A DNA stretch of 64,000 nt from Oceanispirochaeta sp. (GCA_963663385.2 CAXXXD010000003.1:672001-736000); one strand, 5' to 3'. Positions 2,140-3,622 are shown, counted from the stretch's first letter. The notes: generated by a model not told the origin, from the sequence alone. Translations and numbers: made by a program.

Positions 2140-2226
2140 ATGAAATTGCGAGAACAACTGTCTATTAACAGTCATCTCAACGCAGCAGCGGCGGCAGCGG
2201 CCTCTTATGGAGGAATCGCCGGCTGA
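2140..2226 (+). CDS. Attenuator leader peptide with 7 consecutive Ala (MKLREQLSINSHLNAAAAAAASYGGIAG)
   Basis: Read directly: ATG 2140; GCA GCA GCG GCG GCA GCG GCC at 2182-2202; TGA 2224-2226. An intrinsic terminator begins 20 nt after the stop. Confidence 0.85.
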   Translation: MKLREQLSINSHLNAAAAAAASYGGIAG

Positions 2227-2246
2227 GCTGTTAACTAGTTAATTAT

Positions 2247-2281
2247 GCCGCGGTTCCTGAGGGAACCGCGGCTTTTTTTTT
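2247..2281 (+). terminator. Attenuator (intrinsic terminator) upstream of the aminotransferase
   Basis: Perfect 11-bp stem GCCGCGGTTCC/GGAACCGCGGC, 4-nt loop, 9 T; lies 51 nt before the aminotransferase ATG. Confidence 0.9.
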
Positions 2282-2332
2282 ACCAGAACAGCAGCGGTTC
2301 CCAAAGGACTCAGGCAGCACAAGGAGTGTATC

Positions 2333-3622
2333 ATGCGTCGAAACATTGTCTGGGAGGGAGCCGATCAGCTCCATTACGAAATTCGTGAAATTGTGGGGAC
2401 CGCCCACGGTCTTCAGCGTCTTGGAAGGGATATTATCTTCGAAAACATTGGAGACCCCGTGCAGAAAGGGGAGGAAGTCCCTCTCTGGATTCGGGATATT
2501 ATTACGGGACTGGCATCTGAAAGCAGCAGCTATGCCTACACCGCTACCGAAGGGGATCTGACTACCCGCCGGTATCTGGCTCAGAGTGTAAACGGCCGGG
2601 GAGGCTGTCAGATTACACCGGAGGATATAATCTTTTTTAACGGACTGGGGGATGCGGTTTCAACGGTATTTGCCTTTTTAAAGAGGGAAGCCCGGGTTAT
2701 CGGCCCTTCTCCGGCCTATTCCACGCTCTCATCGGCCGAAGCGGCTCATTCAGGCTATGCCCATACCACCTATACCCTTGATCCGGATAATAACTGGATG
2801 CCCGATCTGGAGGATCTGGAAAACAAGGTCCGCTATAATGACTCCATTGCGGGGATACTGCTGATCAACCCGGATAACCCTACCGGAGCTGTCTATCCGA
2901 AAGACATACTGCTGAAAATTGTGGATATCGCCCGGCGGTACGACCTTTTTGTTATCTGTGACGAAACCTATGCCCATATTGTCTATAACGGAGCGGACAG
3001 CTGCCACCTCAGCGAAGTGATCGGGGACGTTCCGGGAATAGCCATGCGGAGTATCAGCAAGGAGTACCCCTGGCCCGGCGGACGCTGCGGATGGATAGAG
3101 GTTTTCAACCGGGACAAAGATGAGAATTTCAATGAGTTTATCCAGACTCTGGTTAATGCCAAACGTCTGGAAGTCTGTTCCACAACCCTCCCTCAGCTCT
3201 CCATCCCCCTTGTGTACAGTGATCCCCGTTACTGGGAGCACCTGGAAAGGCGGAACAGAATCTTCGGAGAGCGGGCGGCGGAAGCGGCGGAAATTTTAAA
3301 TGCCGTACAGGGTGTTCAGGTGAATCTTCCCAGAGGCGCTTTCTACCTGACCGTGCTCCTGGATAAGGAGCGGATCCGGAACTTTATCCCTCTGCCCATG
3401 AGACGGGATGTGGAAGAGTATCTCAATGAGAAGATGGGACATGCCCCGGCAGATAAAAAGCTGGTCTACAACCTCCTGGGCGCTGTGGGGATCTGTACGG
3501 TTCCTCTGAGCGGATTCTGTTCAGATCTGCCCGGGTTCCGCTGTACTCTGCTGGAACAGGATGATGCCAAACGCCTTCAGATCTGGCATACCCTTGCGGA
3601 TGCCCTGAAGCGGATGCTTTAA
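2333..3622 (+). CDS. PLP-dependent class I aminotransferase, AlaA/AlaAT-like (probable alanine transaminase)
   Basis: N-terminal YEIR…NIGDP as in AlaA/archaeal AlaAT; INPDNPTG, DETY and SISKEYPWPGGRCGW (PLP lysine); AAGGAG RBS. Confidence 0.85.
   Translation: MRRNIVWEGADQLHYEIREIVGTAHGLQRLGRDIIFENIGDPVQKGEEVPLWIRDIITGLASESSSYAYTATEGDLTTRRYLAQSVNGRGGCQITPEDIIFFNGLGDAVSTVFAFLKREARVIGPSPAYSTLSSAEAAHSGYAHTTYTLDPDNNWMPDLEDLENKVRYNDSIAGILLINPDNPTGAVYPKDILLKIVDIARRYDLFVICDETYAHIVYNGADSCHLSEVIGDVPGIAMRSISKEYPWPGGRCGWIEVFNRDKDENFNEFIQTLVNAKRLEVCSTTLPQLSIPLVYSDPRYWEHLERRNRIFGERAAEAAEILNAVQGVQVNLPRGAFYLTVLLDKERIRNFIPLPMRRDVEEYLNEKMGHAPADKKLVYNLLGAVGICTVPLSGFCSDLPGFRCTLLEQDDAKRLQIWHTLADALKRML

Follow-up and report, generated by a model that had tools for sequence, protein, structure and literature searches.

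A probable alanine-specific transcription attenuator with a predicted leaderless start, upstream of an AlaA-like aminotransferase gene in Spirochaetia

Results

Genes and sequence elements at the locus

The window analysed here is a stretch of 64,000 nucleotides from an Oceanispirochaeta genome, and all positions given for it are counted from its first letter. A methylpurine-DNA glycosylase (MPG) gene (1493-2068) and a gene encoding a PLP aminotransferase of 429 aa (2333-3622) follow each other on the + strand of this window, the latter being preceded by a Shine-Dalgarno sequence, AAGGAG, which can be read at 2321-2326 (+). The 264-nt gap between the two genes is the site of the leader element, all parts of which also lie on the + strand. 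A promoter scan detects a sigma-70-like promoter made of the -35 hexamer TTGACC (2105-2110), a 17-nt spacer and the -10 hexamer TATCAT (2128-2133), with 10 of 12 consensus matches. The -10 hexamer ends 6 nt before the ATG of a short leader ORF (2140-2226; 28 codons plus a TGA stop codon at 2224-2226), which encodes MKLREQLSINSHLNAAAAAAASYGGIAG*. Leader codons 15 to 21 form an uninterrupted run of seven Ala codons, in the order GCA GCA GCG GCG GCA GCG GCC (2182-2202), which are the putative sensing codons. The ORF is followed by an intrinsic terminator whose stem (2247-2272) contains 11 pairs, nine of them G-C, closed by a loop of 4 nt; its 5' arm (2247-2257) and 3' arm (2262-2272) are hereafter called regions 3 and 4, and they are followed by a tract of nine T residues (T9, 2273-2281). 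A leader with seven mixed Ala codons (GCA/GCG/GCC), followed by an 11-bp terminator and T9, is what an earlier note on this DNA had described, and it is borne out base for base for the leader and by the terminator scan, at 2247-2281, for the terminator. The coordinates stated in that note all proved to be right.

This combination of features is singular in the genome. Among ATG-initiated ORFs of 9-46 codons, 25 display a run of any four identical residues together with a downstream terminator, three of these 25 also have a -10-like hexamer just before the ATG, and only one of the three has a run of Ala, so that the association of at least four consecutive Ala codons, a terminator and a promoter-proximal ATG is found for one ORF in 5.3 Mb. 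We found no further Ala leader in the Oceanispirochaeta genome among 174 short ORFs with four identical residues out of six and a terminator, all of which were read, nor did we find a second one among the short ORFs located behind leaderless-type promoters in this genome.

The downstream aminotransferase scores 631.7 bits on NCBIfam model NF005334 (PRK06855; cut-off 443) over residues 1-428 of 429, a family which bears a generic name only. Its closest solved relatives are the Escherichia coli glutamate-pyruvate aminotransferase AlaA (4cvq, 7.6e-41), which is the nearest, and then the putative transaminase 1xi9 (5.8e-36), which we take to be an archaeal alanine aminotransferase; tyrosine aminotransferases come next, at much weaker scores. 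Membership in NF005334 and similarity to AlaA suggest that the enzyme makes alanine from pyruvate, and the Ala leader itself provides an argument that it supplies alanine. The genome also carries an alanine dehydrogenase gene (locus L141, G000:C1:486767-487867, - strand), which scores above the TIGR00518 cut-off (513 bits) and thus constitutes a second route between pyruvate and alanine.

Conservation of the leader in Spirochaetia

An orthologue of the aminotransferase (E <= 1e-60) is present in 35 of 61 related genomes. Reading the upstream DNA of 30 orthologue loci revealed an ATG-initiated ORF with 4-7 consecutive Ala residues, followed by a terminator, in 21 of them, and a weak version with Ala-Lys-Ala only in one (L027), while the leader is absent from the other eight. 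We then scanned 80 further loci from public genomes, with an automatic screen for at least four Ala residues in a short frame. This screen flagged nine of the 80 loci, and reading the spirochaete-labelled loci by eye added three others (L040, L063, and L083). The leader is present in 10 of the 13 public loci titled Spirochaetaceae, Spirochaetales, Spirochaetia, Treponemataceae or Treponema (one more being cut off inside the leader and two lacking it), and in none of the 12 Leptospira-type public loci. The remaining 55 public loci (Desulfobacterota, Planctomycetota, Nitrospirota, and others) contain an Ala-rich ORF in two cases, without a significant antiterminator. These two loci, L101 and L094, both Desulfuromonadales-type, were rejected as members, as they have a normal 5' untranslated region and antiterminator z-scores of -0.3 and -1.3, respectively. 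L101 (1031-1170) carries an Ala-rich short ORF, MINTAAAAARAN..., and L094 (1001-1170) a 38-aa ORF containing TTAAAASAAG, each followed by a terminator and then by the orthologous aminotransferase gene; they may represent an independent and different arrangement.

We also built a covariance model (R1) from 25 leaders and searched it over 151 genomes of the class Spirochaetia, which yielded a match at E <= 0.01 in 41 genomes. Thirty loci were fetched. The same aminotransferase gene lies 35-92 nt downstream of all 21 best matches (E <= 5.6e-6), as well as of those at L133 and L139, and 22 of these 23 matches contain the Ala run. The seven other matches of the fetched loci, all weak, were discarded, as they have neither an Ala run nor the aminotransferase gene, and two extra matches in the Oceanispirochaeta genome proved to be ordinary gene-end terminators. 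Altogether, we collected 45 distinct Ala-run leader peptides, located upstream of a PRK06855-type, AlaA-like aminotransferase in many Spirochaetia, with Ala runs of 3-8 codons (seven in the window). The attenuator-like geometry recognized in the earlier note, namely the ORF, the Ala run, the stop codon, the terminator, the antiterminator and the linkage to the aminotransferase, recurs in these 45 leaders. The comparison of regions upstream of orthologous aminotransferases, which had been proposed in that note, thus reveals a conserved poly-Ala ORF, as well as terminator and antiterminator stems that covary (see below).

At L134 (~1501-1640, + strand of the model match; G162:C41:26611-26747), a weak match corresponds to a His-run leader, MSAIKFKFHHHHCF..., whose ORF, MSAIKFKFHHHHCFSNGCR, contains four His codons. 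This ORF lies behind a TTGACA/TTTAAT promoter-like pair and is followed by a terminator and then by a hisG-like ORF, MDKLKILLPKGRIY..., so that this locus probably has a histidine attenuator with a similar overall organization. L132, L136, and L137 contain short ORFs led by a Shine-Dalgarno sequence, all ending with GDLS-stop over a conserved GGGGATCTGTCGTA motif and followed by a near-identical terminator, then by a second terminator, with neither an Ala run nor the aminotransferase.

The position of the leader between two genes of the same strand raises the question of its relationship with the upstream one. The terminator, located 179 nt past the stop codon of the glycosylase gene (1493-2068), could merely end that gene, or else belong to an independent small RNA gene, for which a promoter and a terminator ~140 nt apart would fit, the short ORF being fortuitous in both cases. 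However, the upstream genes differ in every lineage examined (an MPG glycosylase gene in the window, and UPF0149, BKACE, LEA_2, DHO_dh, PEGA, GGDEF, Fer4, Amidohydro_2 or Big_2 genes elsewhere), whereas the leader is fixed before the aminotransferase, which indicates that the element travels with the aminotransferase gene. Besides, there are 45 distinct versions of the conserved ORF, and the scan finds a single promoter-like site in the interval 1800-2600 and none between the terminator and the aminotransferase ATG. We consider it most improbable that the element is a mere gene end or a small RNA gene, and hereafter treat it as a leader of the aminotransferase gene.

Predicted leaderless start

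The ATG of the leader, which is found 6 nt after the -10 hexamer, is not preceded by a Shine-Dalgarno sequence, a point that had been missed in the earlier note. As a consequence, we predict a leaderless mRNA, with transcription starting at about 2140. The arrangement is a general one, as the ATG lies 5-8 nt past the best -10 hexamer in 40 of the 45 distinct leaders and TTGAC is present at the equivalent -35 position in 43 of them.

To place this spacing in its genomic context, we counted the occurrences of the pattern TTGACN-N16-18-TANNNT-Nd-ATG in the whole genome. There are 38, 19, 18 and 15 sites at d = 6, 7, 8 and 9, respectively, compared with 4-12 sites only at neighbouring spacings. 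In addition, 58 of the 90 ATGs found at d = 6-9 open ORFs of at least 100 aa, versus 0-25% at d = 0-5 and d = 10-16. This excess of promoter-proximal ATGs opening long ORFs suggests that leaderless genes form a real class in this genome, and leaderless mRNAs thus appear to be common in this spirochaete. The leader ORF bears the signature of this class. Among orthologue loci devoid of the leader, L012, L018, L020, and L021 have the ATG of the aminotransferase gene itself located 7-8 nt past a -10-like hexamer, with TTGACC at -35, which suggests a leaderless and unattenuated aminotransferase mRNA.

Evidence for translation of the leader

Codon composition strongly differs among the three positions of the Ala run. 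In 155 Ala-run codons from 29 distinct leaders, the first base is G in 154 cases and the second base is C in 154 cases, while the third base is free (52 A, 48 C, 45 G and 10 T). Fixed G and C followed by a free third base is a coding pattern rather than a pairing pattern. The ATG and the Ala run are separated by 10-16 codons, in seven length classes, all of which keep the run in frame with the promoter-proximal ATG; the codon length of this spacer is conserved and its sequence is not. The ATG start codon itself is invariant in the 25 aligned leaders. In the Oceanispirochaeta genome, tRNA-Ala is encoded by two genes, one with anticodon UGC and the other with GGC. Six of the seven Ala codons of the leader are GCA or GCG, which according to the usual wobble rules are read by the tRNA with anticodon UGC, compared with about one-third of the Ala codons in the long ORFs of the genome.

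These features bear on whether the ORF is translated at all, as the same terminator might be switched by a structured RNA, such as a riboswitch, a T-box-like tRNA sensor or a protein-binding attenuator. The lack of a Shine-Dalgarno sequence before the ATG and the conservation of the hairpins would be consistent with an untranslated ORF. Yet such an RNA would explain neither a GCN periodicity in which the third base varies freely, nor the invariance of the ATG at the predicted +1, nor an ATG-to-run stretch in which the number of codons is maintained but not the sequence. Moreover, no Rfam family, T-box included, matches the leader with a sensible score: none of the amino-acid leader families, nor the T-box (RF00230), is among the 15 matches obtained up to E = 10, the best of which reaches 24.8 bits where the gathering score is 72, and every match listed falls far short of the value for its family. 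We thus regard an untranslated structured RNA as very unlikely, and favour a leader that is read as protein.

RNA structures

Duplex folding was performed on 31 leaders, a set which leaves aside L040 and L065, as they have no T-tract terminator. Alignment A2 comprises 25 of these 31 leaders, after L017, L029, L054, and L070 (complex architecture) as well as L101 and L094 (not spirochaetes) were dropped. In these 25 sequences, the two arms of the terminator can pair in 95.1% of cells, versus 37-49% when the arms are slid relative to each other, and compensatory changes are observed in nine of the 11 pairs.

The antiterminator of the window associates region 2 (2212-2224), which spans the four codons preceding the stop and the T of the TGA, with region 3 (2247-2257), which is thus the 3' strand of the antiterminator as well as the 5' arm of the terminator. 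Duplex folding recovers exactly the 2:3 pairing formerly proposed from the sequence, with 11 pairs, one G-U and one bulge. Its energy is -17.9 kcal/mol, compared with -9.6 +/- 2.2 kcal/mol for dinucleotide shuffles of the intervening sequence (z = -3.7), and none of 200 shuffles is as good. The same property is shared by most relatives, as pairing of the segment following the Ala run with the 5' arm of the terminator, evaluated without any alignment, yields z < -2 in 26 of the 31 leaders. In alignment A2, 80.9% of cells are paired in the register of the window, versus 38-50% when slid. Matching changes occur on the two strands (for example, CTGCGGT/ACCGCAG is replaced by CTGTGGT/ACCACAG). There are 14 double-change cells, compared with 5.5 +/- 1.9 in shuffles, yet a slide of +1 gives 19, and five antiterminator pairs are changed on both sides, a number that 86 out of 500 shuffles also reach. 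In 25 of 29 leaders, the end of region 2 falls -4 to +16 nt from the start of the stop codon, so that a ribosome positioned at the stop codon would mask this region.

In a third, predicted hairpin (1:2, 2185-2231), Ala codons and those that come after them face region 2 together with the stop codon, the Ala run being region 1, that is, the 5' strand of this hairpin. A 1:2 hairpin had been proposed in the earlier note; it is present in the minimum free energy (MFE) structure and, together with the terminator, in the RNAalifold consensus of 12 close relatives, where one 1:2 pair is UA in five sequences and CG in five; its register is slightly different from the one that had been put forward. The choice of synonymous Ala codons is weakly tuned to 1:2 pairing (mean z = -0.6, with z < -1 in 10 of 25 leaders), and pairing with region 2 reaches -13 to -19 kcal/mol for any GCN run drawn at random. 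Given that GCN runs pair well anyway and that synonymous tuning is weak, part of the Ala run may be maintained for structural reasons.

This last point leads to another reading of a translated leader, in which the ribosome would sense general translation capacity or stress rather than alanine specifically, the Ala run being kept mainly as a G+C-rich region 1. A response of this type, to ribosomes slowed for whatever reason, has been proposed for the whiB7 and erm-type leaders. Besides the ease with which GCN runs pair with region 2, there is a precedent for a broad response, as the uORF of mycobacterial whiB7 responds to starvation for many amino acids (PMC10274678). However, G+C-rich repeats in the other two frames would pair equally well and the third positions are free, whereas the promoter-proximal ATG always sets the run in the Ala frame, whichever of the seven N-terminal lengths is present. 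Furthermore, the downstream gene is always an AlaA-like aminotransferase gene, in 23 of 23 model matches with the leader. Sensing of general translation capacity or stress therefore seems unlikely to us, and an alanine-specific leader remains our preferred reading.

Downstream of the terminator, a fifth segment (2290-2302) is complementary to region 4, in agreement with the earlier note. Duplex folding gives -17.7 kcal/mol for this pairing (z = -4.9, none of 200 shuffles being as good), and it is also present in the MFE structure. In read-through transcripts, the fifth segment could sequester region 4. It is a genus-level feature, since pairing with region 4 reaches z < -2 in 11 of 29 leaders, mostly from the same genus.

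Other structural features were noticed along the way. A small hairpin (2157-2172; ACTGT, a loop of 6 nt, ACAGT) lies in leader codons 6-11 of the window, but is weakly supported, with only 63% pairing in 12 relatives. In L029, L054, and L070, there is an extra pair of segments, with a hairpin devoid of a good T tract after the 2:3 pairing, then a second hairpin followed by a T tract. A relay involving six segments was considered for these three leaders and rejected, as z-scores of -1.2 to -1.8 give no significance to the 4:5 pairing. Finally, the Ala leaders of L040 (SAAAGAR...) and L065 (HAAAAVAR...) are followed by a conserved hairpin without a T tract, and termination at these loci, if any, would need another mechanism.

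The relative stabilities of the two alternative structures constrain the way they could compete. In the window, the 3:4 helix (-23.8 kcal/mol) is more stable than the 2:3 duplex (-17.9 kcal/mol), and equilibrium folding with ribosome-masked bases results in a terminator probability of ~0.99 for the window leader, and in high values for most relatives. Since the competition would be co-transcriptional, such masked equilibrium folding cannot separate the models. Since the equilibrium favours the terminator, antitermination would have to be kinetic. The terminator of the E. coli trp attenuator is likewise stronger than its antiterminator, which makes a kinetic switch plausible here.

Discussion

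Proposed mechanism

Taken together, these results lead us to propose, with good confidence, that the element acts as an alanine-specific transcription attenuator of the ribosome-mediated (leader-peptide) type. According to this model, which is built from sequence comparison and folding, transcription would start at the A of the leader ATG (2140) or at an adjacent base, leaving no 5' untranslated region, and a ribosome would load on the 5'-terminal AUG and trail the RNA polymerase. When Ala-tRNA is well charged, the ribosome would cross the seven Ala codons and reach the TGA at 2224, where it would cover region 2 (2212-2224); the 3:4 terminator would then form and transcription would stop in the T9 tract. 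When charging of Ala-tRNA is low, the ribosome would instead stall on 2182-2202 and occupy region 1. According to toeprinting, the leading edge of a ribosome lies ~11-12 nt past the first base of its A-site codon, so region 2 should stay free for a stall at any of the seven codons. Free region 2 would capture region 3 as the latter emerges, before region 4 is made, and as the terminator would not be formed in time, the polymerase would read into the aminotransferase gene. If the leader is not translated at all, both the 1:2 and 3:4 hairpins would form, leading to termination.

Comparison with known systems

Leader-peptide attenuators are textbook knowledge for Trp, His, Phe, Thr, Leu, and Ile/Val. 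The enterobacterial ones (trpL, hisL, pheL, thrL, leuL, and ilvL) combine a short ORF, a run of cognate codons, the 1:2, 2:3 and 3:4 pairings with a terminator, and a stop codon at which the ribosome masks region 2. The spirochaete leader resembles them in its codon run, its four candidate pairing segments, its 3:4 intrinsic terminator and the location of its stop codon near region 2. It differs from them in the amino acid concerned (alanine), in preceding a single aminotransferase gene, and in its lack of a Shine-Dalgarno sequence and predicted leaderless start; it also has no sequence match with the Rfam leader families. In Actinobacteria, for example in front of Corynebacterium ilvBNC, there are attenuators whose leader peptides are translated from transcripts that are leaderless or nearly so. 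These examples belong to another phylum and concern branched-chain amino acids or Trp, and we found no alanine example among them.

The nearest case that we encountered is mycobacterial. The 5' leader of whiB7 contains a uORF enriched in alanine, named 'Ala leader' by its authors, whose slow translation results in antitermination at a rho-independent terminator, after which WhiB7 activates aspC (PMC10274678). Both systems would thus associate an Ala-enriched uORF with antitermination, and the end result in mycobacteria is more alanine aminotransferase (AspC). However, control by whiB7 is indirect, through a transcription factor, whereas the spirochaete Ala run lies directly in cis before the aminotransferase gene; in addition, the whiB7 uORF is longer and mixed in composition, and both antibiotics and many amino acids affect it (PMC10274678), while the spirochaete run is a tight run of Ala. 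Leaderless polycysteine short ORFs of mycobacteria (10.1101/834739) are also comparable with the spirochaete leader, which is predicted to be leaderless and likewise contains a run of codons for one amino acid; stalling on the Cys run raises downstream genes for that amino acid. These polycysteine ORFs act on translation of the next gene (10.1101/834739), unlike the spirochaete leader, in which the regulated structure is an intrinsic terminator with T9.

A full-text search of the literature did not find any direct alanine attenuator, although an older report is possible as subscription journals were outside the scope of this search. The earlier note knew of no characterised alanine attenuator either, which fits the outcome of our search, where only the indirect 'Ala leader' of whiB7 turned up (PMC10274678). 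In a survey of leader genes that mentions Spirochaetales, the term 'alanine' has no occurrence (PMC4833913, term search). We think it likely that the element is the first direct alanine-specific stalling attenuator acting in cis, that it is leaderless and constitutes a Spirochaetia-wide family, and that its exclusive linkage to the aminotransferase gene marks out the PRK06855 enzymes as the transaminase that makes alanine in these bacteria. The principle itself is already known; what is new is the amino acid, the target gene, the host group and the predicted leaderless start.

Implications

If this model is confirmed, alanine would join the amino acids that are sensed through ribosome stalling, and the leader would offer a regulatory argument for the role of the widespread PRK06855 aminotransferases. 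The element would also represent a compact natural alanine-responsive switch, of ~140 nt, and the combined sequence and structure model may be used to annotate the Ala leader in other genomes. Finally, spirochaetes would be found to combine leaderless translation with attenuation, which, if confirmed, raises the question of how a ribosome loaded on a 5'-terminal AUG keeps step with the RNA polymerase.
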